DNA of 64,000 nucleotides, from the NCBI RefSeq assembly GCF_000143415.4, contig NW_003314334.1, positions 1 through 64,000 on the forward strand, given 5' to 3'. The DNA comes from Selaginella moellendorffii. Its lineage: Eukaryota > Plantae > Lycopodiophyta. The stretch's first letter is position 1; every line of letters begins with the position of its first letter. Below the pieces are notes generated by a model. It was not told where the DNA came from. It worked only from the letters and a program-made list of their open reading frames with translations, and did no database searches. This document shows positions 11,271 to 64,000 of the stretch, in pieces. Made by a program: the position numbers and the translations under genes.

Positions 11271-11764
11271 TAAACTTCAAGTTTGCATTCACATTTCCTT
11301 CAATCCAATCTAAGTAAAGTTTACAAAAAAGTATGGCAATGACTATTTGAATGAATAGACTAATCCCTACAATCTTAATTGATCACTCATAATCATGCCT
11401 AGGAGCAGAGGAACAAGAGCACAGAGAAACTCCCAAGAATACAATCTAGGAGTGAAAAAACTAAAGGAGCAATATAAGAAGAGTTTTAGAGCATCTATCA
11501 TCCCACACTAAGATTAACACACAAAACAGAGCCAAATAAAATCTAGCACTAAACCATTTTGTTAATGTATCCCCATATATCCCCCACTAGCAAATGTCTA
11601 TTGATACTACACCTAGGTGTCCAACAAGAATTCCCTCATGACATTCCTAAAACACCTGCTTGCAGAATTTTCTTTTGTTGCTCAGTAATACCTGATGCCC
11701 CCTCCAAAGGAAATCATCTCAAAAGGAGAAATTTGGGTGAGAGAAGCTAGTAGACATCCTGAAG

Positions 11765-12710: not shown

Positions 12711-13437
12711 CTTCTTAAACATTGAAAAACTTTAGTTCGTCCTAAACCAACATTTCTTCATTTAATCTATATTTTCAAGTAAATTTGACCAATAAAAGAC
12801 AAATATAAATTTAGATCCAAACACTAAAAACAATCTAAAAACACTTTTGAAGCTCCACAATTGTAAGGCTTGTGTGGTGGATGTGATAGTCCCTTTCAAA
12901 ATGGAAAACCTATATTGGACAACCTTCCTATTTCTAGCTAGTCATGTATGCTAGTCTAATGTTGATTTCAATGGCATAACACCATCAATAGCAACATTTG
13001 AAGAAGTCTTCAACTTGAAACTTGCTCTTTCTAGACTTTCAATCTCTTCTTTCGAAAGATTGCAGATTCACTCAACTAGCCACTCCTCTAGTACAGAATC
13101 TAGCTTTGAGATAATTGAACTATGGATTTGGCTTCAGTCCCACAATATTAAATCCAGCTTGATTGGTGGCCCTTTACCCTTAGATCTTGACAGGCCCAAA
13201 AACATAGCACTACTAAAAAACTCGAGCCTAAGTGCACAAATGCAAGACACTTACCTTGACTCCTAATATCATTCTAGACCAATATGCATTGCTCTTGGCA
13301 CTGACTCTTGCCATGATTAGAAATGTATTTCTCAGTGACATACTCAAGTTGTCCACCATAATGGACTATGGACACGAATCCATTAATCATCTAGCCAATG
13401 GAAATTTGAAGAATATAGTCCTATTATAGGAAGATAG

Positions 13438-14926: not shown

Positions 14927-15589
14927 GACAGAAGTTCACCTCTCATGTACAAGAATTCCTTTAGTTCCAACTGTTATGATCAAGACTGCCAACCACCGCT
15001 TCAAAAATTGGTCCAAAAGGAATATACCTCCTTGTCTGAGAAGTTATGTTTGGAAGCTCATCTTAATTTTCATCACTGGAGAGAATAACAACTTCATGCT
15101 TCACTCCTCATACAATTGGTTATGAAATTGATGTGCTCTCCTCTCCTCGCTTTAGAGATCTTATAACTAAAATTTTTTAACTTGTATATATATCAACATC
15201 CCATTGAATCCCATTCTCTCCCCCACTATTATCAAGAAGAATGGATTTGTGTACTTGATTATCCTTGTCATGACATACATTCCCCAAACTAATTAATCCT
15301 GACTTTAGTTTGAATCTTTTGAAGAGGAACCACTCTTAGAGAAAACAATTGGAGGCTTTTGATCAAACATCAAGTAGAATTCTCTCATATTTTCTTCTTG
15401 CTTGAGCACTTATATAAAATTTAGGGAGAAGCTGACAAAAAAGAATAAATATATTCTTCTGTATTATGAGCTTTAATTAGCTATGTCCTTACAAAGGACA
15501 AGCAAATGATTTTAATAAAATATACAACCATTTAAAATCTAGAGATATATGAAAATCTTAAAGAGCCACCTATATTAATTATGTAATTG

Positions 15590-16850
15590 ATTATGAGAGA
15601 AATAATAATGCTGAAATGAATGGGGTACCCCTAACAACAAGAAAATAACCAAGAAAGCTTGCCTCTAAGCAAAAAAAAGGTGGGGAAATGTTGGTTTGCA
15701 TGCAAATCAATCTTTCCCACCTCTTCAACAAGGAAAAAAAAAGAAACAATGGGGCAGAGATGGGCAAAAACATGAATGGAAAACTAAATAAAATGCTAGG
15801 AGATGTTAGTTTGCATGAGAACCAACATTTTCATCCCTCTCATTGTTCAAGAAAAAACAAAAATCAAGAAAAAGAACACTATTGAAAGAAAGAAGGTGAG
15901 GAGATATCAATTCATATATGAATTGAACTCTCCTAGCCAAATCTCTCTTTCCACAAAAGAAAGATAATTACAAGCCATGAGTTGTGAGCTGTGAGTTGCT
16001 GACAAGTTCGGAGCAATAGATGAGGAGATAAAGAAGTAGCAGATGGGGAGATTGAAAATAAGCTTAAGCCATACCTTGATTGAGGAGCATCTTTCTAGCA
16101 TCTTGAAGAGTGTTTAGTGTCTTGAAGCACATTGCAAGATTGAAGTGCCTTTCTCTTGCCCTTCCCCTGCTCAAACCCTTAAAACCCTAAAAATCAATAG
16201 TCATGATTAATAGTCACAATTAATAGTCATGATTTTTATTTTCTTTGATGGCGATTGCTTCTTAAGTTCCAATGGCTTTAATTTTGTAAATAGTGGGATA
16301 TATTTATTGGAAAAATCCTCTATGAATAAAGATTTGACATGTTCTTTACAAGGACACAATGCTTTAGATATTGAAATATGTGTAATTGATTGTGAGAGGA
16401 ATAATACTATTGAGATGAATGGGGTTATAAACTGACCTCTCTAAGGCTAACTCTCACTGCTCACAAAAGATTAACACTCTCTTGAAAGGAAGAAAGTATG
16501 GAGATGAGAGGGAGAATAAACTATCAGTGTTATAACTCTTGTGATTGATCAACACCTCTCTCTCAGAGATCTTTATATTTTAGAAAGTAGGGAAATAAAA
16601 ATGTTGGTTCTTGTGCAAATTGACATCTTCAAGGATGTTGTGATGTTTTTTTCTTGATTTTAAGGACTTGACAACATATTACTTGTGAAAACAAGAGGGT
16701 GGAAGATGTCAATTTTTGCATGAAACAACTTCTCCCATATTTTTGTTATATTTTTTTTTCTTGAGGCCTTCTTGGTCTCAAGACTTTTTGTTTTTTAATT
16801 TTAGAGAGGTAGGATGAGGTCCATTATCATACAAACCAACCTGTTTTAAT
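15590..16850. repeat. Cluster of ~30-45 bp motifs (ATGTTGGTTTGCATGCAAAT..) in both orientations; possible subterminal repeats of a decayed DNA transposon
   Basis: Copies near 15686, 15800 and 16601, inverted copies near 16700-16737 and 16830, plus a ~50-bp direct repeat at ~15580 and ~16380. Confidence 0.45.
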
Positions 16851-17619
16851 TCTTTGCATTTTCTATAGCTAATAATCTATTTTTCACTACTTTTACTTAC
16901 AAATTTTCTTGTGAGAGAAAATATAAATCAAGCTTGACTAGCTTAAACTTCCAAAAGGGGACTTGAACTTATAATGCCACAAGTTTGTTTTACTATACAA
17001 GTTATATGTTATAATATTTTATTTTTTAGTTTAGAGGAAGCATTAGGGCAAGCCTCAATAATTCTGGTCTGTAGGATAAGGCAGCTGTGTTGATCACTAT
17101 GGCCTTGGCTAATTGAGTGGAGATTCATCCCAAGTATCTAATAAAGTTGTCGCTTGTCATGATGAAGGAAACAATGAAGAGTATAACAATGATGTGGATG
17201 CTAAAATAAATGCTCAAACTGGTCTTAATGTTATTGTTATTGAGGTTGTTAGTACTAATACTTATAAGGCTATGACTGTTAGTGGTGGGGTACTTGCACT
17301 TGATGGTGTTGGTGGTGGGGGAGTTATGCCTTTGGCTACTAAGGCTACTTTTGGCAAGGTAGATAAACCTACTATAGAGGCTATTAGTAGCATGGTAGTT
17401 ACATTTGCTATAGAGGTTGCTAGTGGAGGCTGCTAGTAGTATGGTAGCTACTTATATTGCTCATGAGGCTAGTGGTATGGGGGGAACTAATGGTGGTGAG
17501 GGATTATGCATACATGATTATAACACCATCTTAAATAATTGTGTTTAGGACACGATCATCCAAGCTCAAGAATGGATGGTTATAAAGTGTTACAAGAAAT
17601 GGCATGGAATGGCTTTTAA

Positions 17620-26904: not shown

Positions 26905-27114
26905 CAAGCTACCCCGCTTGTTAGTCCGTATTTACTCTAGTCTTGGACTTCCCAGTGGTCAGTTCATCACCCAACACTGGGTCTGGCCTTCTTAGGCCAA
27001 ACTGGCCTTTCTTGGCCAAACTGGCTTCACTGCAGTCCTCCCCCTTACTATACTTTTGGAGCTCACCAAACCCCCCAGGGTTTGGGAGACGAACGCTTTG
27101 GGCTTTCACCCTCT

Positions 27115-27665
27115 CAGACTCGGACTCGGACTCGGACTCGGACTTAGGCTCGGGCTTGGTCTCGGCCTCCGCCTCAAGCTCGGTCTCGGTCCCGGTCTCA
27201 GTCTCGGTCCCAGTCTCGGTCTTGACCTCGGACTCCATCTCGGGTCCTTCTTGGACTCCATCTCAGATTCCATCTCGGGTCCATCTCGGACTCTATTTTG
27301 GACTCCGTCTCGGTCCATCTCGGACTCCGTCTCAGTCCATCTTGGACTCCATCTTGGACTCCGTCCCGGTCCATCTCGGACTCCGCCTCGGACTCCATCT
27401 CGAACTCCACTTCGGACTCCATCTCGGACTCCACTTCGGACTCCATCTTGGACTCCATCTCGGACTCCATCTCAGACTCCACCTCGGACTCCATCTCGGA
27501 CTCCATCTCGGACTCCATCTCGAACTCCACCTCGGACTCCATCTCGGACTCCGTCTCGTTCCATCTTGGACTCCATCTCAGAGTCCGTCTCGGTCCATCT
27601 CGGACTCCACCTCGGACTCCATCTCGGACTCCACTTCGGACTCCATCTCGGACTGCATCTCGGAC
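27115..27665. repeat. Tandem hexamer/dodecamer array (CTCGGACTCCAT)n inside LTR A
   Basis: Visible directly; it generates the spurious ES/ME, SDSI, LGLH and RTPS ORFs. Confidence 0.95.
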
Positions 27666-32070: not shown

Positions 32071-33254
32071 TGTAAGGAACCAACTCCCCGAGATGTCGTA
32101 GGCTAAAGGATCCCCGAAAGCTTGACCGAAATGACAAAGAGTTCATCGGATAGGACCAAGTCGAAGATCGAGTCCAAGACTGACTTTGAGACCGAGTTCG
32201 AGATAGAGTCCGGGATCGAGCCGAGGCCGAATCGGAGACCGAGATCAAGACCGAGTTCAAGACCGAGTTCGAGACGGAGTCCGAGATCCAAATCGGGTCC
32301 GAGACCGAGTCCGAGGTCGAGTCAGAAGTCGAGTCTGAGATCGGGTCTGAGATCAAGTCCGAGATCGAGTCCGAGACCGAGTCTGAAGTCGGGTCCGAGA
32401 CCGAGTCCGAAGTCGGTTCCGAGATCGAGTCCGAGATCGATTCTGAGACTAAGTCCACATACTAATATAGCTCAAGGGGTGAAAGCCCAAAGTGTGTGTC
32501 TCCCAGGGGGGGGGGGGGGGCTGCAGGGGGTTCCAAAAGTATAGTAGGGATAGTGAGGTCCAGAAACCAGTCTTGAAGGAACTCTCCAGTGGTGCTTCCA
32601 AACTGACTTGAGGTTGAGACTTGGGCCGAGGGGCCTTGGGTGGGAGTGAGCATGGGCTTGGGTGGTGCCGGAGGGGCCACCCAGGGAAGTGCTCAAGAGC
32701 AGCTCCCACTCCTGAAAGGGAAACTGACTGCGGTGCTCCCGGCTCATGTGGAGTGGTGCCCCACTTAAGTACCTTGTGGCTCATTGGTCCTCGCCCTTCC
32801 TAAGGGCTTGGGCCTTCCCTTCGGGATGGAAGTGGGGGGTAGAGGTACCCATACTAGGCCGTTAGGCCACGGTGTTTCATCCCGACGTCCCGAAGCAAGT
32901 GCTGCACCCAAGGCTTAGGATTTAGAGGGTCCCATGATCAAGTCTTGTAGTACCAAGAGGTGTTAGGAATCTTGAGGCTTGGTGTGCTTGGCTGCTTGTG
33001 CCTGCTGGGAGTGTAGCCGAACCTTAAGTCCAGTCTAACCCAAGGAGGGGGATTGGGAGAGATTTGGGAATCCGTAGATGGATGGCTAACACTCCATTGC
33101 TCATGCAGTGAGTAGCTGAAACCAAGTAGGACCAAGTGGGAGCTGGTACCATAGGCGAGAACCTTGGCGAGGGAACTTTGCACAATCCAAAACAGAGTTG
33201 ATCGGATAGACGAGGTAAGCTGACAAATTGGAAAAGAAAAATTTGTGGCTTACA
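32071..33254 (+). repeat. 5' LTR of element B
   Basis: Direct repeat of 43631-44788; followed by PBS. Confidence 0.95.
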
Positions 33255-43630: not shown

Positions 43631-44788
43631 TGTAAGGAACCAACTCCCCGAGATGTCGTAGGCTAAAGGATCCCCGAAAGCTTGACCGAAATGACAAAGA
43701 GTTCATCGAATGGGACCAAGTCGAAGATCGAGTCCAAGACCGACTCTAAGACCGAGTTCGAGATAGAGTCCGGGATCGAGCCGAGGCCGAATCGGAGACC
43801 GAGATTGAGACCGAGTTCGAGACCGAGTTCGAGACGGAGTCCGAGATCCAATTCGGGTCCGAGACCGAGTCCGAGGTCGAGTCCGAAGTCGAGTCCGAGA
43901 TCGGGTCCGAGATCGAGTCCGAGATCGAGTCCGAGACCGAGTCTGAAGTCGGGTCCGAGATCGAGTCCGAGATCGATTCTGAGACTAAGTCCACATACTA
44001 ATACAGCTCAAGGGGTGAAAGCCCAAAGCGTGTGTCTCCCAGGGGGGGGGGGGGCTGCAGGGGGTTCCAAAAGTATAGTAGGGATAGTGAGGTCCAGGAA
44101 CCAGTCTTGAAGGAACTCTCCAGTGGTGCTTCCAAACTGACTTGAGGTTGAGACTGGGGCCGAGGGGCCTTGGGTGGGAGTGAGCATGGGCTTGGGTGGT
44201 GCCGGAGGGGCCACCCAGGGAAGTGCTCAAGAGCAGCTCCCACTCCCGAAAGGGAAACCAACTGCGGTGCTCCCGACTCCTGTGGAGTGATGCCCCACTT
44301 GAGTACCTTGTGGCTCATTGGTCCTCGCCCTTCCTAAGGGCTTAGGCCTTCCCTTCGGGATGGAAGTGGGGGGTAGAGGTACCCATACCAGGCCGTTAGG
44401 CCACGGTGTTTCCCCCTGACGTCCTGAAGCAAGTGCTGCACCCAAGGCTTGGGATTTAGAGGGTTCCATGATCAAGTCTTGTGGTACCAAGGGGTGTTAG
44501 GAATCTGGAGGCTTGGTGTGCTTGGCTGCTTGTGCCTGTGGGGAGTGTAGCCGAACCTTAAGTCCAGTCTAACCTAGGGAGGGGGATTGGGAGAGATTTG
44601 GGAATCCGTAGATGGATGGCTAACACTCCATTGCTCATGCAGTGAGTAGCTGAAACCAAGTAGGACCAAGTGGGAGCTGGTACCATAGGCGAGAACCTTG
44701 GCGAGGGAACTTAGCACAAGCCAAGGCAGAGTTGGTCGGATAGACGAGGTAAGCTGACAAATTGGAAAGGAAAACTTTGTGGCTTACA
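43631..44788 (+). repeat. 3' LTR of element B
   Basis: Direct repeat of 32071-33254; preceded by PPT. Confidence 0.95.
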
Positions 44789-47700: not shown

Positions 47701-50700
47701 GCAAAAGAGAACTAAGAGCCAAGCTAAGTATGCTCAGCTAAAAACACATAGGAGTTCCTACCTTATGTCCATTTGGCTAAGTACAGGTGCTAAGCCCAGT
47801 AAACTAACACTTGAACAAGAGGGGCTGATAAAGGGAACCAGCAATACCGACCTCCTGCCATTATGGCAGTAAGTAAAAAGTGTCCGTAAGGGCTAGCCGA
47901 CAGATAACTTTTGATACCCGAAGTCACATTCGCGACACTCTCCCCCCGTAGGGAAGATCGACATCCTCGTTGATGCATACTCGAGTCTAGAATACCGCCA
48001 AGGAAACAACTCAAGAAAAAGTTCACGGTAGTCACACTATGTGAGAAATGCACCAACTTAAATGAGTTAGGAGGTAACCTCTTTGTCTAACGCGGATGCG
48101 CTACTAGCTCAGACACCTTTCGGCCGTCGCCAACAAGGAAATGACCAATGGAGTCAGCCACCCTTGCTGCTCTGGGTGTCACCCAACTACAAAAGTGTGA
48201 TATGCCCCTGCCCGCAAGGACATAGAGAGAGGAGCCAGAGGCCCCAACCCTCCTGAGCAAAGAAACCAAACCCATCGGTAAGGTTTAGATAGACTACTGT
48301 CAACAGGCAGTTAGAGTTGTTTACACAGTCACGCCCTTTTGAACGAAATAAGGAACATCGACAAAGAGGCGGGTGATGTGACCAGTTGATAGTAGCTACC
48401 CCATGATTAGAGATTTCACCATGCACACGAAGTGCTGAAGCCAGTCTGCCTATACTGGCCCAAACTCAAAGATCAATATATGGACTATATCAAAGTCATA
48501 GACAATGATATCTTAGAGATTTAATTATCAATGAAATAAAGCTTAGATTAGAACACAAAAGTATTCCAAGTAAGTTATCATCCGATAAATTAGTAGTTGA
48601 GTATAGAAACCACCAAGATCATCATAATTGGTAAACATAGGAATCACCATCCAACAAAATTCAATAACAAGTATATCATCAAGGAAACCCAATGATGAAA
48701 CTTAACTATCAAAGATTGCAAATAGTATTCCAAACAGCTTACCAAAGATAACTCAAAGAACACAAAGTATCATCGACTAGCAAGCAAAATGCTCGCGAAT
48801 GTATCACCTAAAGGAAATAACATCCCAATCTATCAGAACTAACTCTAGCAATAATCAACAGAACTGAATGAATGTAGTAAGATCAACAAACACTTGTTCA
48901 TGCCAACCATTGCACCAGCCAATCTGAATAGATCCTAGTCAACAATACCAAGGAGCTTAAGTTGCCTAAGCAAGTGTTAGTAATGTTTTACTAATGTCTC
49001 AAACCCAAGAGACCAATCCAGAGCAAACCACAAAGAACATGTGGTATTGCCAAAAGCCATAAGCCATCAAATAGAACAACTAATTATCATGAAATATCAT
49101 CAATCATCACATCAAAAGAGAGATGCATAATCGTCATTGAAGAAAGAATCCACCATCCCAAAGAATGGCAAATCATTCTAAATCAACGATAATCAAGCAA
49201 AACCTTTGACAAGGATAATCAACTATCCTAGATGATAGTCAATCATCACCAATAATTGCTAGATACAAAAGCCAACTTCAACATCAAAGCTAATGAGCCA
49301 AAATGCTTTCCCAAATAATTTCAAACAAATGGAATAATGAGCATAAAAACTCAAGGAACCGAAAGTTCGAAGAAGCCTATAGCTAAGTCATGCCTAACAA
49401 TGATCACAAATTTTGCATGAACTAACTTCAATGCTAAAGAGAAATCATGGTACAACCCACAATATTCTCAACACATCTAGAAGTCAAACTTCATAATGCT
49501 AAAGCTAATGAAGAGTATATTTACATCAATTCAAAAGCTAAGTATAACAAAGCTATGCTCAACAAATGATCACTGAATGATCTTCCATGAATCCATCTAT
49601 AGCAAGATGTAGCTCACTTCATAACAAGCCCAAGAGAAATCATCAATGATCGATATATTCCAACTCAAATCCAATAAAGATTCAAACATTTTAATATCAA
49701 TCACTAACTCTTCCACTTGTAAAGCTAGTATAGTCCACGACTAAATCACTTTTCAAGGAAAAGCTAAAACTCAACCTCAACTAAGCAATTTCATCTAGAA
49801 CACAACTAACTCAACTTACTACTTAGTTCATTTGAACATCAACACAATTGCTAATTAGCAAATGCATGAATGCCAACAACACAAAGCTAAAGCCAAATCA
49901 TCAACACTATTTTCATCAAGACTAATGAAATTCAATATCAATCTTTGGAAGGATATCTCATTCACTCAAATCTCAATATCAACAATGTTAACAACAAGGC
50001 ATCATTTCAATGCCATCAACTAGAAGAAAGCGAGAGTGAATCACCACCCAAAACTTTTTAGCAACTAAGCTAACCAAAGTCAAAGATACTTTAGTCAGTA
50101 TCCGAGACTAATCCTTCAGCAATACTCAGTTTCAGATAACATATCATCAAGGAGTGATTCACCACATCTATGACTCAATGCAATTCCAACACTACAGACT
50201 AAATGTAACCAAATGATATCGACAAAGGTAGAGCCAATATGCCAGTATGAAAAACTCATGTAAGTCTAACAACACGATCCTCCATAACATCATCCGGTAA
50301 AGCAAGCCCATCACTGCTAAATCAACATTTAGCAAAGCAAGTGTCAAATAGTCTTTGACAAAGTTTACAAGCAATCACTAGTTGCAAAGCAACCAACAAT
50401 CGCTCTTCAACTTGCCTTCACAAGACCCAAACACTAAACTCACGTCATCAAGTTATATACTTGTCCAATATGAATGTGATACCCTAGGCACGAGATAAAA
50501 GTTCATGGACAAGCACTAACGAAATGACCACTCGAATTCAACTCAACCGCAATAAGCTGACTAATGCATTTACCCAATAGCTCTGAGCATGCCTTGAACA
50601 GGCTAGCTATGCATGATCAACACTCAGTCGAAACTAAAGTGAAGACCATAAGATGGACTCATATTGGTACACAACCTCCTCATAGACAAAGCTATAGTAT

Positions 50701-53036
50701 GGGTACCAACATCTCAACTTAAACAACTAAGTTGAACATCACCATCCTCAACCATGGCACAAAACCACCAAGACCAAGTCATGATCAATGAGAGCTTACT
50801 ACTCTCATAGAGTCTAAACGAAATGCAAGGTGCAACCTACCACCAAGCACAACACTACAAAAGAAAAACACAAGGGTCACCTTTCTTAGAAAAGCGCAAC
50901 GGCCACTTTTCTACACCAACTCCAGACTCTATCCAACTCAATTGCCTTAGCCCTAAAAGTGAGCATCCCTTTTAGGCTGCATCATACAAACTACTTACTA
51001 AAGTCTAAGCCAACCAAAGTCAACTCCAACCCTTTCACTAGTTTGTACTGTCTTACAAAAATGGAATGGTTTTTGGGCAAAATGATCGACAGATCAGCTA
51101 TTGGAAAAGCCTAAGAAAATTTGTGGAAAATTTTCCATCCTAGAGAAAGAATGACTCTCAGTCTAGGAATACAAACCTTCAAGACTTAACCAACTTTCTC
51201 CTACTAACAACTTCACAAAGGTTCACCTCAACACCAATTCTCATGACCCATAGTATGCTTAAGTCTCGAACATCTTTGCCCATTTTTTCGACATCCAACA
51301 TTGACGTCCACAAAATGCAAAGTGAGGTGATTGAAGAAGAGTGTTAGTGCAATATGGATATCCGAAGATGTGGTCTTTGTGATCAAGCCTTGGGTGTTCT
51401 TCAAGATTCAATGTGAAGCCAAAACACTAACAAAAAAAATGGCATGGAAAATCAAGGTTTAAGGAAAATTCCTCATCACTCAAAATAACAATGTCACTTC
51501 CACTAACACAAATGCTAGTGATGTCAATGCCCTAACTACACATTTTCTCCATCCAACAATTTATTCCAAGTGTTAATGGATCAACCGATGAGCTATAGCA
51601 AATGAATGCTACAACCCTTTTCCAACACCACATAGGCAAACTCTCAAGGAAACAAGGTACTAACTTAAGCTTAACATAATGGACCACCATCAAGAATCCA
51701 GTCAAAGCTACTACAATGCTACTACATGCAAGTAGACTAGCTTCACCATTAACCACTTTGGGGTTGATCATCATTTAACCAAGAAACTTTGTAAACACAT
51801 TGCTCATTATCACATGGATATGATATGAGTATCACAATTATTTGATCATCAATCGAGCAACACTACGAGCAACGCCCATATCATTACTACAAAGGTTTAC
51901 GTAAGTATCAAGTGTTAACTCAATTCGACAAAATGCAACATAAATGCCACACTCCACCAATAGAGATTTACAACACCCAACACCACTAACTTTTGTTCAC
52001 AACACAGACAAACTCATGCCACTCTTTTTCCAACCAAACTCAACACTAATCCAACACCAAGCTACTCAAGGAGCAATAGCAAGGTTCCTCGGAAAAGAAT
52101 TGAGCATTGTAACCCAAGTCTTCCAATGGCAAGCCTAGACAAAATGGTTTAGCGCTTCACCACTATCCATCCCATGACTCACCACTTGTAAGACCATCAT
52201 CTCCAAGATATATCAAGGTAGGGACTCTTGATTGCATAATATGAATACGAGCAATGAGTTAACACCTCGTTGCAAATCATCTTTCCAAGAAAAGAAGATG
52301 ATTTATGTGTTTGATCCTTCGTCCCCGATGACTCTCTTTTCGGTCTAAGCTCTATTTCGTTAAAGTGGGATTTATTCAGTAAAATGGGACTAGGTACAAA
52401 TTTTCAAGTATTTGAAAATGACGTGAAATTATATGTTTTTTGTCCAGGGGGCTAGACATATCTGGGGCATGGTGACTAGCGCGGTGACTTTGTGTCCAGA
52501 CTGAGTCCATCTGGTTGTATAATAAATCTCATTGTCAAGGTGAACAAGCCGAATCTGAAGCTAAAGAAGAGCGATGGCATGCGCGCACACACTATTTGTT
52601 TGTTCATTGAGCGTGTGGTGAGCTTTCCAAGATGAACGTCATTCCTATTAGCCAGACATATAACTTAATGGTGAGAACATTTAGATATTATTCAATGTTA
52701 TCTTTTTCTAACGAATCTAATTGTGAAGGTGTAGCAAGAGGCATTGCTAGTCTGGAGAAGTCATTTAACTCATTTGACCCTTAGTGTATTTTCATGAAAC
52801 TAAATAACATTCATATTATTAAGGAATTTCTCTAGTACCTTTTTTTTACGACATAGAGGCTTGCATTTGTTTCAAAGGTGATTTAGTAAAAGGCCTGAGG
52901 GCACATGCCATTCTATTTCTCAGACCAGTATTAAGATATACTAGTGCAAAGGGCCACATGCCATCACGCCTCCTCTGATTCAGATTCGGATTGTTCACCT
53001 TGAAATAAAATACATTAGAAACTTAGTAAAGGAATA

Positions 53037-56000
53037 TTAAATCTCACCTTGAACCCGGGTTATGAATGCTCTTGCTGCATCTCTTGCATGGTCTGGCAAG
53101 GTGATGGTGGCACTCTGCTTCCGCATCCAACCATGCACAACATTATCCACCGATATGCTCATGCTGGGATCCCTTGGATTCAGCACCCATCTCTTTTCTA
53201 GGCAATCCTTCGTATATCCGGAACTTGGCTTGAACCACTCCACAGTTACATTGAAGGAGTTAGTTTCCGCGTCCTCCTCTGCATCAGTGATGCAGCGCCC
53301 CACCCATATCATTTGTTTTTTATTACTGGGTCTGACAAGCACGACCATTCCTTTGCAGACCTGTACTGGATTGAATGCTGAATCCGGCTTCTTGTTCCTC
53401 GGCCCACAATAGTGATCCTCAACATCCTTATCTGTCACTGCATTTCCAGAGGACATTGTTCCGCTACTATCTGGTGCTCTGGGTTCTGGCCAAAAGGACT
53501 CTTCCAATTCTTCATATACAACCGGCCCATTTTGGATAGCAGATATAATCTTCTCCCAGTATTCGAGCAAAGGCTTGCACCTCTTAAAATAGGATTCTCC
53601 ACCAAACACCAACCCCCTCTTCCAGAAGGCAATATGCTGTCTAATCCCGGCCACTATACTTTCCTGGTCTTTGAGTCCATCCGGGTGCATCGGCCGTGGG
53701 GAACCTTGAGGAATCATAGGTTCCCCAGTTATGGGATCTCTCTTGAAGAGTTCAATGCCGTCCACTGGCAGCCACACTGTGTCCCATTCTCTCATCTTGT
53801 ACCTCATCACTGGAGCACCGTCACACATGCTGAAATGAAACTGAAGAGGCTTGGAGTGGCCAATCAGCGTTTCGGATCCGTCCCTGATGTAGCCTCTTAC
53901 AAACCCCTTAAAGTCTGGAACCTCTGTCACAAGTGCAGCTTCAACAGTGCCTTTGATGCAATTTTGGAATTCATCGTAGAGTTGTGGGAGGGTGAGGACA
54001 TTGGATCGCCGGAGGGACTCTGCCAGGTGACTGAACATGGCATCGACGTCTTCATGAGTGTGCCCAACCATGAGAAAGCCAAGTGTAACCGTTTCAAATA
54101 TGCCTTTGGCAACAAGCATTGCCAAGTACGCGAAGACGTACATGTTTTTGTTCTCACTGCCAGCATTGTCTGTTTGGAGCAAAAGATGGGGTGGAAGGCC
54201 ACATCGGCCGCAAGAACTTCCTTGAGATTCTGCTTCGTTTGGATGAGGCTGTGCATTCACCGGGCGACCAGCCTCGTCGGAATGGCATGAGGCCTCACGT
54301 GATAACCCTACAATCTGACGGCCAACATATTCACTGGGATGGCATGGGGCCCCACGCGATACTGCAAGCCTTTGCTCCTCCTCCAGCTGAACCCTGTATG
54401 GGGTACGATCGACAAGGGCCTTATGCAAGGGTTGGCCGTTCAGCTCAGTCTGCGCACTTTGCAGAGACCTTAAGTGTTTTGCTAGGGACGCAATCATCAT
54501 GTTTGCACCCCCGCCACCCCATAGAGGTACAAAGAAGTTCCCATAGTTCTGGGCACCATGCCCATGAGCGATTATGCCAAACAGAGACACAGGCAGCTGC
54601 ATGGATGAAGAGATTGCCTTGGGGGCAGGATTGAGTCGAGGTAAGCACGTCTTTTTCTGGTCCATTTTGTCGTGGATGATGCAGAGGTAAGAGTCAGGTC
54701 TCTCCATGGAGAGAATCCTGTTATGATAATATGCAGTCCTGCAGCTTCTTTGCTCGATGTTGTGGTCGAGCCGCCTTCTAACCAACGTCTCTCGCTCTTG
54801 AGCGCTGCAAGAATTCTTCGACAAAGCCATTTTGATAGCAGTGCACTCGTCACACTTTGAAAAGCTGGAGTACTTTCCTATACTCACATCCCTGAACCTG
54901 TTGCTCCACAATCTACTAAATCTAGATTGGCTCAGCTTCCTGTAGCCATTACTCTGGAGTTCCCGATTCACATCTTCCAATATGGCCCCCTTGGTATACA
55001 TGGAAGGGAGAACTCGTTGGGTGTCTCGTGTTCCATCTTCCAAGAGGCGGGTTTTATGTGGTTGCTGCTCGCTACATGTCTCGACAAACCTCTTGAAGAT
55101 TGCCTCTCCATATACAACATGACCCCTGGTTTTGTGCGTACCGTCGTTCCCATGGACTGCCTGTTGAACCCTTTGTTCCTCGAACTCAGTTTTGATTCTG
55201 TAGAATGTGCTTCGAGGGACTCCATAAATGATTCTCCATGCCTTCATGCAGACCAAACCCCTCTGGAAGACCATGCCCCCCACCTGATGTTCTGAAGCAT
55301 CAACAAATGACCGTAATGCCTCATACACAAAATTGCGAGCTGCCTTCCAGGACAATGTCTTGTATCTTGCTCTCTCCTCTTCAATAGCATCCCAATCAGC
55401 ATGTTGACAGCACCTCCTCTTGCAACAAGCAACTGTCGAGACCATTCGAACCTCCATCGCCATTTTCTGCCTTTTTGGTTCGTTGCTCAGATCCCTTTGG
55501 CTGCGCTGTAGGAAGGTGTACTTTCTTTTCCCATGAAGAGATGTTCTGTCATCAGTTGTAGTGGTGTTTGATTGTGAATCCTTCACATTCTCAAACACTA
55601 AATGCCTCAATTTCCACCGCACAATGCTTCCAATAGTCAGACTATTTTCTTCTGTGTCAACAACCTCTAAAATTGCAACTCCAATATCATCCCAGCCCAA
55701 TTCTTGATTAGCAACCGCATCTCTTGGATCGACAACTGTGGCTAAGCCCTCAGCTACCACCTCCCCCTCGGGGTTGTTTAGAAACACCTTTGCCTGAATC
55801 CATGTAGCACGGTTCTTAAGATCCACGGAGGGAACATGCGTCGCACTTGCGCTGTCCCCAACATCTGCTTTCTTCTGTAGATTTTTCAAGGCAACAACAA
55901 CATTTACCCCGACAACCATCTCTCCTCGTTCAATAGCGACCACATTCCCATCGAAGACAGTCTCTACTGATACAGCAGCATTGCCTTCCCCAAGCCTTTG

Positions 56001-56102
56001 ACAGTGTATAACAAAGTTCCGATCCATAGACACAAGGGTCCCTTTTGCAACTCTCTTCCCACCATTCAAAATGTAAACCTTTTCCCCAACCCTGAAGGCC
56101 AT
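53037..56102 (-). CDS. Sola-type (DUF7869-like) DDD transposase, 1021 aa, intact
   Basis: Catalytic motifs 'IIHDKMDQKK', 'LQTDNAGSENKN', 'FLMVGHTHEDVDAMFS'; Cys clusters CCKRRCC, CMKAW..IYG, CDEC; two N-terminal repeats; a 3' splice site immediately precedes the ATG. Confidence 0.82.
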   Translation of the reverse strand: MAFRVGEKVYILNGGKRVAKGTLVSMDRNFVIHCQRLGEGNAAVSVETVFDGNVVAIERGEMVVGVNVVVALKNLQKKADVGDSASATHVPSVDLKNRATWIQAKVFLNNPEGEVVAEGLATVVDPRDAVANQELGWDDIGVAILEVVDTEENSLTIGSIVRWKLRHLVFENVKDSQSNTTTTDDRTSLHGKRKYTFLQRSQRDLSNEPKRQKMAMEVRMVSTVACCKRRCCQHADWDAIEEERARYKTLSWKAARNFVYEALRSFVDASEHQVGGMVFQRGLVCMKAWRIIYGVPRSTFYRIKTEFEEQRVQQAVHGNDGTHKTRGHVVYGEAIFKRFVETCSEQQPHKTRLLEDGTRDTQRVLPSMYTKGAILEDVNRELQSNGYRKLSQSRFSRLWSNRFRDVSIGKYSSFSKCDECTAIKMALSKNSCSAQERETLVRRRLDHNIEQRSCRTAYYHNRILSMERPDSYLCIIHDKMDQKKTCLPRLNPAPKAISSSMQLPVSLFGIIAHGHGAQNYGNFFVPLWGGGGANMMIASLAKHLRSLQSAQTELNGQPLHKALVDRTPYRVQLEEEQRLAVSRGAPCHPSEYVGRQIVGLSREASCHSDEAGRPVNAQPHPNEAESQGSSCGRCGLPPHLLLQTDNAGSENKNMYVFAYLAMLVAKGIFETVTLGFLMVGHTHEDVDAMFSHLAESLRRSNVLTLPQLYDEFQNCIKGTVEAALVTEVPDFKGFVRGYIRDGSETLIGHSKPLQFHFSMCDGAPVMRYKMREWDTVWLPVDGIELFKRDPITGEPMIPQGSPRPMHPDGLKDQESIVAGIRQHIAFWKRGLVFGGESYFKRCKPLLEYWEKIISAIQNGPVVYEELEESFWPEPRAPDSSGTMSSGNAVTDKDVEDHYCGPRNKKPDSAFNPVQVCKGMVVLVRPSNKKQMIWVGRCITDAEEDAETNSFNVTVEWFKPSSGYTKDCLEKRWVLNPRDPSMSISVDNVVHGWMRKQSATITLPDHARDAARAFITRVQGEI

Positions 56103-56281
56103 TCTGAAAGTGCAGAAAAGAAGTTAAGACCATACAAAAAATGATTGGAGAATGGCCTAAATCATAACATACCAAATAGCATGAGGCCACATGCCATTAT
56201 TCAAACATGCTATTGACACCCACGTGAAATTTCACATTCACAAAATTGGCATGAGCCCTCATGCCATTAGTGGTACCACTA

Positions 56282-56473
56282 ATGGCATGAGGCCTCACGC
56301 TATCTTTGGCCCCTGCTAGCCTGTTGCTATATTCCTTTTGCCTTGTTGCAACTGTATATATTTTTGTGTGTGTGACTAGTCACCCATACAAAAATATATA
56401 CAGTTGCAGCAAGGCAAAAGGAATATGGCAATAGGCTAGTAGGGGCCAAAGATGGCATGAGGCCTCATGGCAT
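56282..56473. repeat. 192-bp near-perfect loopless inverted repeat capped at both ends by the 22-bp palindrome
   Basis: Centre GTGACT|AGTCAC at 56377/56378; arms compared base by base. Confidence 0.95.
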
Positions 56474-56668
56474 CTTGATAGACATGCAGGCGCGGGCCAG
56501 GAAGAACATACATGACGATACGCTAGCCATGACATTGCAAGGGCCCAAGATGGCATGTGGCCTCATGCCATTTCTAAATGTGGTCCTAAACCATTCCATG
56601 GTGAACATACCAGGAAGCACAAGTGCCGAATATCAAGAGGAAGCGGTAGCCACACCAAAGACAGTGCT

Positions 56669-56860
56669 GCTCGCAACACCGCAACTACTCGTAGCGCCGC
56701 TCACAACACCGCAACTGCTCGTAGCGCCGCTCGCACAAACTGCCACTCACATAAACTGCCGCTCGCAATGGCGCTCGCAATGCCGCAACCGCTTGTAGAC
56801 GCATAAACCACAGCTCACAACGCCGCTTACACAAGCAGCGCTCACTGCGCTCAGCGGAAC
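56669..56860. repeat. GC-rich tandem repeat (30-bp unit x2, then degenerate units) upstream of the transposase
   Basis: gctcgcaacaccgcaactactcgtagcgcc is repeated. Confidence 0.75.
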
Positions 56861-57595
56861 CAAGAACACGGCGCACAAAAATGATAGACCTAGGAATGAG
56901 TTCGAGAATTCAAAAATAACACACGCTTGAACGTCACATCAAATCCTCTGACAAACCAGATCTTATGATCTTATGATTCAAATTTCAAACTGAGTAGCTT
57001 CTAGACTTTGCTGTCGGAGGTTGAACTTTGTCACATCATGTCCTTGCCTCGATCCAGCTGTGCCATGTCAGTGATTTGAACTTTGCCATGCCATGTCAGC
57101 GATCCGCGCCAAGATTATTTGCCGTGTAAAGGAATAATTATGCTGTGTGTGTATGTCCATTTATGGCAATATAAGGCCACATGCCATTCAAAGAATAATG
57201 CTAGTTGAGCATCTTTTGGTGCATTTTTGGGTTCAAAATTGCATGAGCCCACACGCTATAAAGTTTACCTGTACCAAAAATAGAAACAACTTTATTTACT
57301 TGGGAATTTATATGGCTGAGGCATTTTTAAACTTACAAACACATGCCCTACTTACATTCCTTTGGTTGCTTAAAATTCAAAAATATTATAAACCTTTTTT
57401 TTTGCATTTTCAATGTTTTCAATTATGGTTTTTGATTTTCGCAGGACCAGCCTAGTAATCTATTTGCATCCCGTCATGTTTATAGCTAGCTTTTGTTTGT
57501 CCCCTTCGCTAGCCTGAGATACATCTGCTCGGCATCTGCCTCTTACAGCATTTGCCCAGAAAGGGCATCTTTCTTCACGCAGCATTTGCCACATG

Positions 57596-57627
57596 TTTAG
57601 GGTTAGGGTTTAGGGTTTAGGGTTTAG
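57596..57627 (+). repeat. Interstitial plant telomere repeat (TTTAGGG, ~4.5 units)
   Basis: TTTAGGG TTAGGG TTTAGGG TTTAGGG TTTAG. Confidence 0.9.
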
Positions 57628-58838
57628 CAATTCAGTAGCTTGATAAACATGCAAATACAGAACTTGATGCAAAATCCTTTGATATGTCACAATGCCCCTA
57701 GGACCATAAACACATTTCAATAGAGAGGGTCCTTTCATTTCATAACTCCTTACGTAGCTCTTGGTGAAACCAGAGTTAGTGAAGTTGGTTTCTTGTGATC
57801 CCGCATCTGATTGTGATGTCCCTTTGCAGTGTCGATGGAAAGGTCAATGCACACCAAACTGTAGAATCTTGGAGCAAAATAACGGTCGGATCTATGGCAA
57901 ATGCCCCTGAAACATTGTAAGGCTCGTATGGTCTCATGTGGTGTCCGATCGAGATGCTTCTTTGCAAGGTCATCAAGAAGGACATTGTATACCATTCTGT
58001 AAAATCTGGTTGCGATCTAACGGTTGGATCTCCAGGAAACTCAAAACAATCTCGCGCGTGTTAGAATATTCTAGGAATATACTCCTATGTGCTCCTGAAA
58101 ATGGCATGCGGCCCCACGCCATTCAAGAGATAACGCCAGATGACGCCAGGCATTTTTTGGTGCATTTTTTGGGATCAAAATTGCATGAGCCCACATGCTT
58201 GAACGTCATCCTCTGAGAATTTATTTAGCTGAACATCTGGCATTTTTGGAAATACAAGATGCTTTGGAATATCCAATCATGCATGGTATAAATATAGCGA
58301 GGGTATTAAATGATATCCCAATCATGATCTTTCTTTTGGATTTCGCGTGCATGCAGTCCGAGGAATGATGACGTTGCGGATTTCTTTTGGATTTCACGCA
58401 TGCGCGCGCCGATCCAGAAATTAATGGTGGCGCCCAAGTCCGAGAAATGATGACGTGGCGGGATTACCAACTGTCGTGACATTTCGCGCGTGTGAGGTTA
58501 GGTTTTGCATTTTGCTTCGTACTCGCGCTCGCATCGCGCTCCCACTCGCGCTCCCACTTCTCTACAGGTTTCTCGTGTGCATCGGCGTCCACTCGCGCTT
58601 GCATCACACTCGCGCTCGCATCGCGCTGGCGTCCACTTCAAGACACACCCAGTTTGTAACTTCGCCACCAACTCCGCCGCCCACTCCGCCACCCACACGC
58701 AGCCCACTTGGCGTCCCGGGAGATTTCAGCGCCACTCTCCAACTGTAAGTGGCAGAGTAGCCTTGCTGCTACGATCCGCTGCACACACAGTGCACATTCG
58801 CCAGCGAGTCCGGTTGTCACGCCTCCATTCGGCTTCAA

Positions 58839-61800
58839 ATGGTAAGTCTTTTAGGCCAAGTAGAAAATGGCATGAGGCCACATGCCATTCAGTAGCAACA
58901 TTGGCATGCACCGATTGGGCTCTCGAGTGCAGTCCGGTTACAGATGGCGTGTAGCCTCACGCCATCTTAGGATGCAGCCTCAAGACATCTGATGCAGTGG
59001 TGAATAGCGTGTGGCCTCACGTTATTTCCAGCTACTAGCTTTTCATCTGCCAGCTCTAATTGTTGTGCATTTCTGAACAGGCGAGGAATTGCGTTCTTCT
59101 TCCAGCCACTGTCAATGTGGATGCAGAGAAGGGGGAGGAGCTCACCAGTTGGACTTTCGGGATGGAAGGCGAGGATTTGAGGCTGTACAACACAGATGGT
59201 GGGAGAAAAGAATGCATGGGGATCCTCATCCAAATGACAGACACTCCATGCAGTTCCATGCAAGAATATGGACTGGCACTTGTGGTAGAGACAGCGTCTG
59301 CCTTCAAGATCCACCTTGCACATCCTAGCAGCTTCCCGGAGGGGGGCAGCGGCTATGAGGAATTCCTAGAGGGAGCTAGGGAGAGGTTGTCCAGGAGGCC
59401 CACAATTTCAAAGACGTTGCGGGTCTATGAAGATAACATGGAATCCACGGACCTCACCTACGGCGATGTTCAAAAACTATATTCCAACATTGAGCCGTTG
59501 AGAGTGACTCCAGTTCGCGAAGCAAAGGGGAAGGGGGTCGATCTGGAAACTACTTCGAAGCAGAAAAGGGTGGTCAAGCTCAAGCCGACGTCCGACTCTC
59601 CTGCACCAAAAAAGAAGCTACTCAGTGATGCCATTGCCTCGGGTTCGAACACTACACCCACCAAAAAGAAGAGCCGCAAAGAGCAGAAAGAGCAAGAAGA
59701 GGCAGCAAAAATCGTCGCAGATAATAGTACTTGTTACTATTCCAACAAAGTATATACAATCGACGTGAGCCGTATCGACATCCAAAGCAAATACAACCAC
59801 AGGCTAGTATCTGATGAGTGGGTGGAGAAATTGAAGCAGAAGATGCTAGCAAGTCCAGTAACACCCGACATCGCAGACGTGATCCCCTACTACCAAAAAA
59901 TGAAGGGCGAGATGAGGTTTCCAGACTTGATCAATAGGAAGGTGTTGGACGATCAGAACATCCGGTTCTATGCCGTCTCCGGGCAGCATTCTAGCTTGGC
60001 GATGCAAGAGATAGTTGTGGATATTATGGTGGGCGAGGAGGTGAAGAAAGTCTTCAAGACAAGAGTTGTCCGCCTGATAAAAGGCAACTCGCCCCTCCGA
60101 TCTATCATATACATCTCCCACACGCAGAATGTCAAGCAAGAAACGTGCTACAAATCGGGTCTGCACGAGACATTGGCACGAACACGGAAGCTCTGGGTTC
60201 AACTGAAGAAGCCACAAAAACCAGGACAAGGACGTGCACTAGCAACTAGCGCCTGGTAGGTAAGCCTCGTTGTATGTGGCATAGCATGTGGCCTCACGCC
60301 ATTTCCATTGCAGGAATTCTCGAGTCTTCTCTCGAAAACACTGGGGGTCAATGACACACTCAGCATCCATAACATTCTACTCGCGACAAAAGTTGTTTTT
60401 GACAAATGGGTAGATGTGCTGAGGAGGTACCATGACGGGGAGTTGCCAAACTCAATGGGTGTGGAGGACGGCCGGAAGCCCAATGATTTGAAGCTCAACG
60501 CCTTGCGTTTCTCGCGGTCTCTAGACGACGATGACCTTCTGACAGTGGCTAATGCTCTTCTACGTGGTGAGGTTGTCTTCAACAAGACCAAAATGACTCC
60601 CAGCCATATTGTGACATACGAGGACTTGTGCACGACTTTGAGAGCTCGTGCGCTATTGAAGGATTGGATCTTCGAGCAAGTGGCCGTGGAGAGGGTGAGC
60701 ATCGACACCACGCAAGAGATGATGGAAGCGCTGGAGTTGTCAAATGAAGACATCGACGAGTACGTGAAGGGGGCCCCCAAGTTCATCGATCTGCTGCGGG
60801 ATGCCACGAAAAGTAAAGCTGAGAAGTTGGATCAGTATCCAAATTTCATTAAGATTGATGTCGACCGCCGGCTTCAGAAACAGCTCGACCCCGCAGCAGA
60901 GGCCTATCGAGAACCTTACCGGGTATACTTGAATTCGGATGAGGATGAAAGGTGGAGGAGCATCGTTTCCCGCGGAGATGAGCAGGTCAAGAACATCTTT
61001 TGTGTGATGGACTTCACAAACGAGGAGATCACTCATGCAGACGAAGTCAGCTCCATCATTGACTTAATGGTGGGACTTGCGGAGGTGGAATCTTCAGTCC
61101 ACTATATGATCTATGACTCCGAATCCTATCACAAGTTCTGGAAGGCCTTGAATGAGGTGAAGGCTCAGTTGAAAGGCAAGGAGATGCGGGAGATCCATGG
61201 GATAATGGCTAAGAAGAAGATACCGACGAATGTCCGCATCTTCACACTCGCCCTTGTTATTGGTCCTGCAGCAGAGTGGGACTGGAGTGACTTCCCAGCT
61301 TCGTTCGACAAGGCCAATCGAATTGATCTGAGGGAGGTCAATTTACCCGTGCCTGAGGAACTGAAGACGGCTATGGAGCTTTCGAATCCAAAGAAAGCTC
61401 CAGGTGCAGCATGGGAAATGCTCAGCTGGGTCTTCAACGCAATAGCGGGTGGGTCACCTGCTTCCGACTCCAAGGGCAAATGCGTTGTCGAGTACAACTG
61501 CGGCGGACTATTCTTTCGAGCCGCACTACTCAAGGGTGTCCCGTGTGTTGCAGTGACAAACTCCATTGAAGAGGTGACTTCAATGGAGCATATAATTACA
61601 GTTGCCAAAGAAAAATAGTATCTTCTCTACGAACCTGGTGAGTACGCACTTTAAGTTTAAATGTTATCTCACAAGCTCTGTATGCAGGAGCGTGGCCACC
61701 CCCAGATGCTGAAACGGCGTTAACAGCTACTGTTGAAGATACCCATGTTGGGCCGAGCTCACAACCTGCACAAGGTAAGGTCACGTGAGGCCTCACGCCA

Positions 61801-64000
61801 TTTTGATTATAGATCGTTGTGAATATTCAGACACGAGGACTGAAAAGCGCACTGGTGGCGCATCGAAGAAGGACAAACAGAAAAGCAATAGGAAAAAAGG
61901 AGGTACAAATTATATTTGCAATGGCATGTGGTCTCATGCCATTCCTTGCAGGAGAAACTTCTTCAAAGGCAAAACAGGCAAGCACCAGCCAAGCTCAAAC
62001 TGACAGTGGTCATAAAAAGCGAAAGCACGTTGGACAGTCGTCGAGATCAGAGGCGTTTGATTCGAAAAGGAAGAAGGGCAACGAAAAGATGATAGGTAAT
62101 GCCTCGCGGTTATGGCGTGTGTGCTCATGCCATTCATTGCAGATCAAGGGCTGAGTGAAAGCAGGCAGTCACCACCTCATGACTCAGATTCCTATGGCGG
62201 ACTCCCCTTCCCCAATCTCAATGGAGAGGTACAATGGATGAGGGAAGCTTTTCAAGGCAGGGCCACGTTTTTCTCATCTCGTCGTCTTCGAAGGGTGCAA
62301 GAACGTGCAGAAACCATGTTAAGACAGTCGGGTGAGGATACGGTCCTAGGTCACGCACTAAAACAGGCTATGGATGTCTTGTATTTTGAGATGGAGACTC
62401 GGCCAGATGATTTTCCCAAGATGGTCCTGGAAGAACAAGCCATCCAGCCTGAGCAGCCTATGGAAGAAATGCAGGAGGGGGATGAGGAGCCAGAGAAAGA
62501 TAGCCAGAGGAGGACGAAGAAGAGGAGGACGAAGAGGACTTGGATGGTCCTCATAATGGTGACGATCACAATAACGATGACGACGATGATGACGACGATG
62601 GCCAGCCTGAGGTGGCCAAAGAGCGGCAGAGGAAGGTCATACAAGACAAACCATCAGGTAAATAATAATACATCCATTCCTAACCTTTTACCATTTCTAA
62701 CATTGTCCATGTAGGTCGCAGAGCAAATGGTAAGTAGAGATTATTCAGTTGAATTTACAAACTCTAGCCTTTAGTGTCGAGGAAGGATAGTGCCAAGCAA
62801 GGGTCGAAACGTATGTCCAATCCTTCAGAATCAGCAGTGCGCTCAAGTGATATCGGTCCTAGTTCCTCAATAGCAGTTGATGGTAAATACAGTATAGTCG
62901 ATTCAATGTGCTAATGAGTTTGTTTTTAGTAGCACGGGAGGATACCATCTCAATCGAAGGGAGATATTTGGACATGCATATGGATCCGCCAGTGGACTCT
63001 ACTTGGCTGCAAGAGTCATCAGAGCTGGTGGAGGCTACTATCCATATCAACGCCAAGCAAGCTGACCACGCTTCACTTGATGCTGCCCATACCACTGAGT
63101 CAATCTTGTCCACGTATCCAACTGACGGTGACCAGGCGCCATTGGACCCACATGAGGCCGCCCCAGCCGCCGAGCCGGTCGTATCCTCATTTCCAACGGA
63201 CTCAACGTGTGCCCAATCATCTGACTACGCGCCGTTGGAACCTCCCTACACCGCCCCTGCTGCCTGTTCGGTCATATCCACTTTGCCAACGGAGGCACCA
63301 GCTGAAATGGCGTGTGATCACACGCCATCGGAACCACCCCATGCCACTGTTGAGCCAGTTGTACCAGAGTCTACAGCTGAAATGGCATGTGCCCACACGC
63401 CATCGGATGCGATTGACCCCACATTGCAGAGGAGAGTATTTCCGCCCTTCACATTTCCTCGACCAAAACCCTCTCAACGACCATCAGGAGCAACATTCGC
63501 TAATATTGTAGATGGTAAAATTGACTTGTACCATTTTTTATGCTGACGCATTTCATTTCAGAGTCACGGCGAAGGTACTGTATCGTTTTTGATCTGAACG
63601 GTGTCCTTTTCTCCCATGAGCGTGGCTCGTCCTCGAATGTCATTGCACCCTCCAAAGCCTGCGGTCGCAAGTTGGTCAAACGAGACAGATTCACATTAAT
63701 CACACGGGAGAAACTGCGGGATCTAATAATGACCATGCGACACTTAAAACAGAGGGCCGGGTTCAATTTGCAATTGGGAGTTTGGACATCCATGATGCGC
63801 CACAATGCATTAACGTTGCTACAGATGATGCACGATCAGACGCGAGTAATATTACCATTTGACTTTCTCCTAACGCAGGAGGATTGCTTGACTATGGTCC
63901 ATGTGAGGGGTAGCAAGCCCATCTTCGTCAAGCCAGAGGCTGTAGTGATGAACCGGACTGCTAGCTCAAGTGAAATCCTCATCATCGATGACTCGCCGAT
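58839..64000 (+). pseudogene. Multi-exon cargo gene: ParB/Srx-like domain + degenerate N4/N6-MTase fold + acidic linker + FCP1/NIF-type HAD phosphatase; runs off the window, two TAG lesions
   Basis: Introns 58842-59080, 60260-60313, 61638-61687, 61775-61830, 61903-61951, 62096-62142 and 63515-63561 preserve frame; 62657-62714, 62730-62774 and ~62856-62932 are probable. Motifs: 'RLVSDEWVEKLK..FYAVSGQHSSLAM'; 'NPKKAP..KGKCVVEYNCGGLFFRAALLKGVPCVAV'; 'CIVFDLNGVL..VWTSMMRHNA..TQEDC..IFVKP..ILIIDDSP'. TAG at 60257 and 61616; frameshift near 62500. Confidence 0.75.

Follow-up and report, generated by a model that had tools for sequence, protein, structure and literature searches.

The Sola1-1_Ec32 transposon of Ectocarpus carries, opposite its transposase, an accessory gene with ParB-like and N4/N6 DNA-methylase domains, and its product is proposed to bind the element that encodes it and to modify it (PMC12477816). 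Inverted repeats have likewise been proposed as binding sites for the product of a ParB-like accessory gene in Plavaka PAG3 of Bostrychia (bioRxiv 10.1101/2025.02.11.637652). The VANC/VANDAL system of Arabidopsis, as described in PMC5735166, relies on a 9-bp non-palindromic motif, and demethylation has been shown, while in Spm/CACTA elements clusters of a family-specific motif are bound by the accessory factor TnpA, which is transposase-derived and has terminal sites (bioRxiv 10.64898/2026.08.24.746577). Here we describe a DNA transposon, likely Sola1, that begins at position 52347 of a 64,000-nucleotide stretch of Selaginella moellendorffii DNA (contig NW_003314334.1, positions 1 to 64,000, hereafter the window) and contains 23 copies of a 22-bp palindrome along with two divergent genes, one for a DUF7869 transposase and one for a predicted ParB-like protein. 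The pattern of the sites and the predicted fold of the protein suggest that the palindromes are family-specific operators for the element's own ParB-like protein, a reading to which we assign a probability of about 0.58.

A palindrome family restricted to one element of the window

A consensus scan of the 64,000 bases with ATGGCRTGWGNNCWCAYGCCAT found 20, 21, 22, and 23 sites beyond position 52,500 at up to 3, 4, 5, and 6 mismatches, respectively, while the first 52,500 bases gave 0, 0, 2, and 6. Second-order Markov resamples of the 11.5-kb region (n = 30) contained on average 0, 0.03, 0.4, and 3.8 matches at the same thresholds, and the matches with 5 to 6 mismatches in the first 52.5 kb are at chance level. 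The 16-bp core, allowing up to 2 mismatches, matched 22 times in the window, with 21 of these matches inside the element, against an expectation of 1.70, and none of 100 shuffles reached 22. The family spans 52574-63403 and was also returned directly by a repeat finder; the rest of the window, outside the element, holds Ty3 and other retroelement genes and no palindrome site. These results confirm that the family is real and, within the window, restricted to the element. An earlier interpretation made from the letters alone (the sequence-only reading) had proposed about 23 copies over 11 kb with none in the first 52 kb, and this agrees with our counts; its description of the motif as element-restricted holds for the 64-kb window.

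The sites are spread through the element. Three (52574, 52890, and 52943; 52574-52964) lie near the left end, in and between the arms of a 47-bp inverted repeat, and two (54282 and 54339; 54282-54360) fall within the transposase open reading frame (ORF), in a poorly conserved insert at about residues 582-607. Five (56176, 56246, 56282, 56452, and 56550; 56176-56571) stand directly upstream of the transposase ATG in what is likely a 5' leader intron with an AG acceptor before the ATG, and four more (57166, 57238, 58101, and 58180; 57166-58201), partly duplicated, occupy the space between the divergent genes. Three (58867, 58944, and 59004; 58867-59025) fall in the first predicted intron of the accessory gene, and four (60281, 61780, 61921, and 62112; 60281-62133) each lie in a predicted intron of 47-56 nt, 9-11 nt before the AG. 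The last two (63307 and 63382; 63307-63403) are in a 75-bp duplicated coding linker, and the copy at 63307-63328 is a perfect palindrome, as the sequence-only reading had noticed.

Only 4 of the 23 sites are within predicted coding DNA and 19 outside it, though coding sequence makes up about 65% of the 11.65 kb, and all four coding copies are in variable segments, namely the unconserved transposase insert and the duplicated linker. In the accessory gene, 7 of 9 sites fall in predicted introns that amount to 691 of 5,160 nt (hand count; binomial probability about 2e-5), and half of the ten predicted introns have a palindrome while half do not. Of the 23 sites, only 3 are less than 700 bp from the known end, and none falls in the outermost 200 bp. 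Because of local duplications (57224/58166 and 63292/63367) and the 56282-56473 hairpin, not all copies can be counted as independent.

Over 46 half-sites the consensus is ATGGCRTGWG, with variable positions 3, 6, 9, and 11. Position 6 is A in 28 and G in 17, and position 9 is A in 22 and T in 18, which bears out the A/G and A/T alternatives expected at these two positions. The centre had been expected to be GGCC or GATC; GGCC is indeed most common (13/23), while GATC occurs once and other centres account for 9/23. Past the first 1-2 bp the flanks hold little information, which suggests that the site itself is the unit.

The symmetric variation described earlier is real in that the same positions vary in both halves, but the changes are not coordinated between them. 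Position 9 is complementary between halves in 8 of 23 copies, where random pairing gives 8.7, and position 6 in 13 of 23, where it gives 11.4. A shuffle test on 21 of the 23 copies, excluding the two most degenerate, gave a covariation score of 0.105 versus 0.115 for shuffled halves, with 334 of 500 shuffles as high, so the proposed check on half-site covariation came out negative. No structure measure rose above the shuffles either (228-377 of 500 as high), and pairing fails in 13 of the 21 copies for positions 9 and 14 and in 9 copies for positions 6 and 17. Halves that vary at the same positions yet independently fit a protein dimer on double-stranded DNA and not a hairpin, and we rejected the conserved-hairpin interpretation of the 22-mer for its lack of covariation.

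At the CpG position of the half-site, a hand count gave CG in 16, CA in 27, and TG in 1, over copies that are not fully independent. Deamination alone would give equal numbers of CA and TG, so one strand seems constrained, and plain CpG decay as the sole cause of the position-6 variation is ruled out, with the same caveat on independence.

Several further repeats involve the palindromes. The arms of the 47-bp inverted repeat (52535-52581 and 52957-53003, 83%) each end in or beside a palindrome copy. Two copies form the outer ends of a 192-nt fold-back at 56282-56473 (91% complementary, -96.3 kcal/mol, z -20.3), which lies a short way upstream of the transposase ATG and is a possible source of small RNAs against the element's own leader. 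A 222-bp segment in 57997-58220 that includes two palindrome copies is missing from contigs in three sequencing runs, which indicates that palindrome number differs among copies of the element.

The accessory protein and the related loci

The second gene is predicted on the forward strand from an ATG at 58839 to the window edge at 64000, divergent from the transposase, with 11 exons. Its ten introns, all read by hand as GT-AG, are placed at 58842-59080, 60260-60313, 61638-61687, 61775-61830 (or -61812), 61903-61951, 62096-62142, 62658-62714, 62730-62774, 62883-62929, and 63515-63561. Nine of the ten are 45-57 nt long, and all preserve one frame into a domain of the NIF type. Contigs from run X20, which we guess to be an RNA run, are unspliced.

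Exon 2 encodes a predicted ParB/sulfiredoxin-fold domain with an SGQHS motif (59660-60256, forward strand), recognized with phmmer, AF2, Foldseek, and VIA. The phmmer search returned 16 distant matches, of which 15 span the domain and one, from yeast, does not; the SGQH motif is conserved in 13 aligned homologs, with a family form SGQH(S/T)xxA. The AF2 model of the exon reached a pLDDT of 76, while a single-sequence fold gave only 33. In Foldseek the best match to the model was Noc-NBS (7ol9, E 2e-4), a structure of Noc together with the DNA site that it binds, and ParB, PadC, KorB, and Srx came next. VIA placed PadC (Z 9.1, rmsd 3.0, 98 aligned) and KorB (Z 8.5, rmsd 2.7, 94 aligned) among eight top rows that all have the ParB/sulfiredoxin fold (Z 9.1 to 5.8). 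The structural model thus predicts a ParB/sulfiredoxin fold for the accessory protein. Sequence searches of Pfam, NCBIfam, and PDB put no ParB name on the exon-2 domain, and word-based protein searches gave no match for exon 2 or exon 3.

Exon 3 includes a region (60910-61615, forward strand) that weakly resembles a degenerate beta-class N4/N6 DNA methylase. The link runs through P0051, a homolog from Riccia with a beta-class methylase-like tail (PF01555, E 0.0039; M.RsrI, E 0.0046), to which the window tail has a weak pairwise similarity (E 0.011); matches of profile A6 are mostly S-adenosylmethionine (SAM) methyltransferases, also weak (E 0.07-1.2). Active beta-class amino-methyltransferases have catalytic (D/N/S)PP(Y/F/W) and FxGxG SAM motifs. 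The exon-3 translation contains no (D/N/S)PP(Y/F/W) motif and no PP dipeptide, and the position of the SAM motif reads YNCGG, so that the methylase-like region looks catalytically dead. At its C-terminal side, a NIF/FCP1-like HAD phosphatase domain with a DLNGV motif (63562-64000, forward strand; PF03031, E 1.5e-5) is joined in frame to the ParB-like protein by the predicted splicing, a combination that, as described in the sources cited above, the algal proteins do not share.

We compared the window with 23 related loci, 3 from a metagenome scan and 20 from a genome scan. These 20 (L004-L023) are filed in bacterial or archaeal genome bins yet have eukaryote-type DUF7869 sequence; their introns and microsatellites give them a eukaryotic look, and they are likely contamination of prokaryotic bins. 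Under one fixed rule, at least 4 copies of a dyad were found in 8 of the 23, compared with 2-3 copies in 4/4 window control stretches and 1-2 in 15/15 Markov controls. Six of the eight are clear and present four palindrome types unlike that of the window, whose core has no exact match in any of the 23 loci. This is the outcome of a check proposed in the sequence-only reading, that related elements might carry different motifs.

L004 and L005 share a 21-bp TT(C/T)AGCTCGA-S-TCGAGCT(G/A)AA around the transposase, and L019 and L022 have CGATTAC-based palindromes, several of them in a predicted transposase intron. L014 has TTGAAATTTCAA and L020 a GGACTCA-based type, each with arrays at both ends of the element. 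L004 and L020 contain tandem units of 50 and 43 bp, respectively. Two further loci that passed the rule, L008 and L021, were set aside as small tandem duplications, and L001-L003 were not counted as families, with just 1-2 copies each of possible palindromes. At 34-509 and 3573-4091 of L005, the outer six palindrome bases resemble what we take to be the RK2 KorB operator half-site, which may be chance. In L014, L018, and L020 a ParB-like gene is located upstream of the transposase and reads from the other strand, and methylase-like tails, judged mostly by eye, occur in L004 and L011.

Candidate binders of the palindromes

Our preferred interpretation combines dimer-like half-sites, an element-encoded fold that goes with dispersed palindromic operators, and a shift of palindrome type between families. 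Noc, ParB, and KorB bind palindromic operators, and the best fold matches include them, Noc in the form bound to its site. A dimer of the accessory protein would sit on double-stranded DNA with one subunit per ATGGCRTGWG half-site, and the ParB-like protein, rather than the transposase, would be the binder. With at least 20 sites over introns, leaders, and the divergent promoter, it could coat copies of its own family. Through this it may regulate the two divergent genes in a family-specific, KorB-like manner, or it may guard the element against host silencing, much as VANC protects VANDAL elements. As the methylase-like region looks catalytically dead, scaffolding or recruitment would be likelier than self-methylation. 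The sequence-only reading had offered either a dimeric protein site or a conserved hairpin; the first alternative gains from the independent halves, the avoidance of coding DNA, the ParB-fold protein, and the differing palindromes of relatives, while the second falls with the missing covariation.

A broader scenario, which we put forward only tentatively, is a eukaryote-wide DUF7869/Sola1 lineage with a bacterial-style ParB/operator system. Each family would pair a palindrome of its own with a cognate ParB-derived protein that loads at a minimum of 20 sites, many of which are retained in mini-introns. From these sites the protein would spread over the element, carrying with it a dead methylase fold and a phosphatase-like domain, and would keep its family transcriptionally active in the face of host methylation. 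T or methyl-C would both be tolerated at position 6, leaving silenced copies readable, and the system would represent a prokaryote-derived form of anti-silencing, independent of both VANC and TnpA.

Several results weigh against an operator role for the accessory protein. The accessory gene is broken in the window copy by in-frame TAG codons at 60257 and 61616 and by a frameshift near 62500. ParB CTP (cytidine triphosphate) clamps have an arginine-rich GxxRxxA CTP motif, and the accessory protein has SGQHS in place of the arginine motif. A helix-turn-helix could not be demonstrated, homologs of exon 3 were not detected in protein searches, and the similarity of exon 3 to L014 was not significant by BLASTP. 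Plant and animal-like ParB domains are only modestly linked (A3 versus A4, E 5e-4, probability 31%). The methylase-like tail of L004, which lies at a contig end, does not match P0051 significantly. L004 and L005, the plant-type loci with clear palindromes, include no ParB domain, and in none of the five contigs of plant type (L001-L005) were a ParB domain and palindromes seen together. Fifteen of the 23 loci have 3 or fewer dyad copies, including L018 (20 kb, with a ParB-like gene) and L011 (8.7 kb), although many of these low-count loci are short contigs.

The palindrome arrays at both ends of L014 and L020 are a further such point, fitting binding by the transposase equally well. In this main rival, the transposase itself would recognize the sites with its Cys-rich and N-terminal domains, either to bring the ends together in synapsis or to activate itself, and the ParB-like gene would be a passenger. 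Transposases can be sequence-specific regulators, as described in bioRxiv 10.64898/2026.08.24.746577, and L019 and L022 have sites while no ParB gene was seen on their short contigs. Most window sites, however, are internal by 4-11 kb and in introns, with few near the known end, and the element has a second gene with a predicted operator-binding fold; we regard binding by the transposase as a live but less likely reading.

Recruitment of a host dimeric transcription or chromatin factor would account for the clustering of sites around the divergent promoter and the first introns, and the half-sites contain GCATG/CACGTG-like cores of the kind used by plant factors. Against this, the five unrelated palindrome types across related elements favour an element-encoded partner, as does the fixed 22-bp geometry, of which the 52 kb of host DNA outside the element contain no complete copy; we regard a host factor as very improbable. 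We would say the same of neutral debris, in which the copies are left by local duplication or by a tiny mobile unit: several copies do stem from local duplication, and tandem units occur in L004 and L020, but cores are conserved while flanks are unrelated, copies avoid coding DNA, tolerance at the CpG is strand-biased, and different palindromes recur in related elements. Least credible is a role of the palindromes as RNA or single-stranded DNA hairpins, whether splicing aids or small-RNA sources, which would draw on the four copies just before an intron AG with a branch-point-like CTCAY and on the two that close the long fold-back but is largely refuted for the 22-mer by the unpaired positions, the predicted introns that lack the motif, and the absence of an Rfam match in 48-64 kb, though the long fold-back may yield small RNAs.

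The element, its transposase, and known systems

In contigs of two samples, seven different flanks meet at 52346-52349, and the host repeat runs on into other sequence after 52346 in 59, 31, 3, and 4 contigs of runs X1, X2, X5, and X11, which together place the left end at 52347, although some of the flanks could be right ends that match via terminal inverted repeats (TIRs). The element starts with AAG there, and its right end is past the window. Upstream, 48001-52346 is an abundant, more diverged, strand-skewed repeat that served as the insertion target, and two further element copies join the same repeat. The public runs of one organism include three of DNA type whose contigs reach every one of the 30 bins of 48001-64000, and long pieces are about 99% identical to the window (for example, 2,695 bp with 13 differences). 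Seventeen runs with contig totals of just 3-4 million letters contain about 64% of the element's words, which suggests a high copy number, sequencing depth not being equal to copy number. The element is a young multi-copy family with an intact transposase.

The transposase is an intact 1021-residue ORF on the reverse strand (53037-56102; PF25273, DUF7869, E 6.3e-42) with 36 homologs. The best-scoring named ones are from the liverwort Riccia sorocarpa, at about 30-35% identity over long matches, and further homologs reach about 40%; taken alone, these matches would suggest a bryophyte-like host. CxxC 417/420, H447, D478, D645, and GHTHED 680-685 are invariant in 19 sequences (E684 in at least 90%), as are D685 and D687. 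The transposase profile had no PDB match, and a viral sequence collection yielded no relatives. At the N-terminus, Transposase_23 matched below threshold (E 0.035), and 55800-56102 encodes two tandem SH3-like modules; homologs carry precomputed PF26133. VANDAL elements are Mutator-like, and no family related to Mutator-like elements (MULE) or VANC appeared in Pfam scans of 6 window proteins.

We provisionally equate DUF7869 with Sola1, to which the element likely belongs. The relative L014 has its element at 3126-14032 with an ATAA target-site duplication (TSD), and L020 at 3760-17509 with TTAG, both with 5'-AAC termini and short TIRs. A 4-bp TSD with TIRs, present in both relatives whose ends were examined, matches the description of Sola DNA transposons, whereas CACTA/En-Spm elements have CACTA/G termini and a 3-bp TSD (PMC10741241). 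Neither of these CACTA features was seen at the left end of the element or at the ends of L014 and L020. Short runs of plant-telomere-like repeat stand upstream of the transposase in both the window element (57595-57627) and L004 (3540-3680). Elsewhere in the window, tandem arrays with a 12-bp unit recur near Ty3 elements (9090-13909, 27113-27665, 32154-32456, and 43725-43984).

ParB-methylase genes on Sola1, and inverted-repeat arrays beside ParB-like genes, are already proposed in algae. Our searches of the open literature turned up no land-plant case, no element-wide dispersal into mini-introns, and no family-specific palindromes, though subscription papers, Repbase Reports, and supplements may contain them; the main text of PMC12477816 has no occurrence of "palindrom". 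Like Sola1-1_Ec32, the window element is large and has a ParB-like accessory gene on the strand opposite the transposase, and it differs in its plant-like host, its 23 mapped candidate sites, its degenerate-looking methylase motifs, and the NIF domain predicted in the same protein. It shares with Plavaka PAG3 a ParB-like accessory gene and inverted repeats as proposed sites. In PAG3, however, the transposase is of the EnSpm/Plavaka type, the ParB domain is joined to a 2OG oxygenase, and the repeats stand next to the gene as a tandem array, while the window sites are dispersed over introns, leaders, and linkers of a DUF7869 element.

The likeness to VANC/VANDAL, as that system is described in the source cited above, lies in an element-encoded second protein and in family-specific motifs that occupy intergenic DNA and introns and have spread partly by tandem duplication; the window motif is instead a 22-bp palindrome and its protein ParB-like, and VANC is unrelated to ParB. 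With TnpA the element shares clusters of a family-specific motif, but its sites are not confined to the ends, and it lacks visible CACTA hallmarks. In the bacterial ParB/parS, Noc/NBS, and RK2 KorB/operator systems, a single replicon carries many degenerate palindromic sites scattered along it. The window element resembles them in this arrangement and in the ParB fold, and is unlike them in being eukaryotic, spliced, and transposon-borne, with a CTP-binding arginine motif that is not conserved.

As described in their sources, the algal ParB-like proposals defined no specific site, and the window element offers an exactly delimited candidate operator of 22 bp, in which the pattern of specificity can be read. 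The four other palindromes in relatives, together with that of the window, make the proposal testable by cross-family binding assays. If it is true, such elements would supply plant epigenome tools with orthogonal pairs of protein and DNA site, and the ParB-like protein would join VANC and TnpA as the third known way for transposons to recognize and regulate their own copies.

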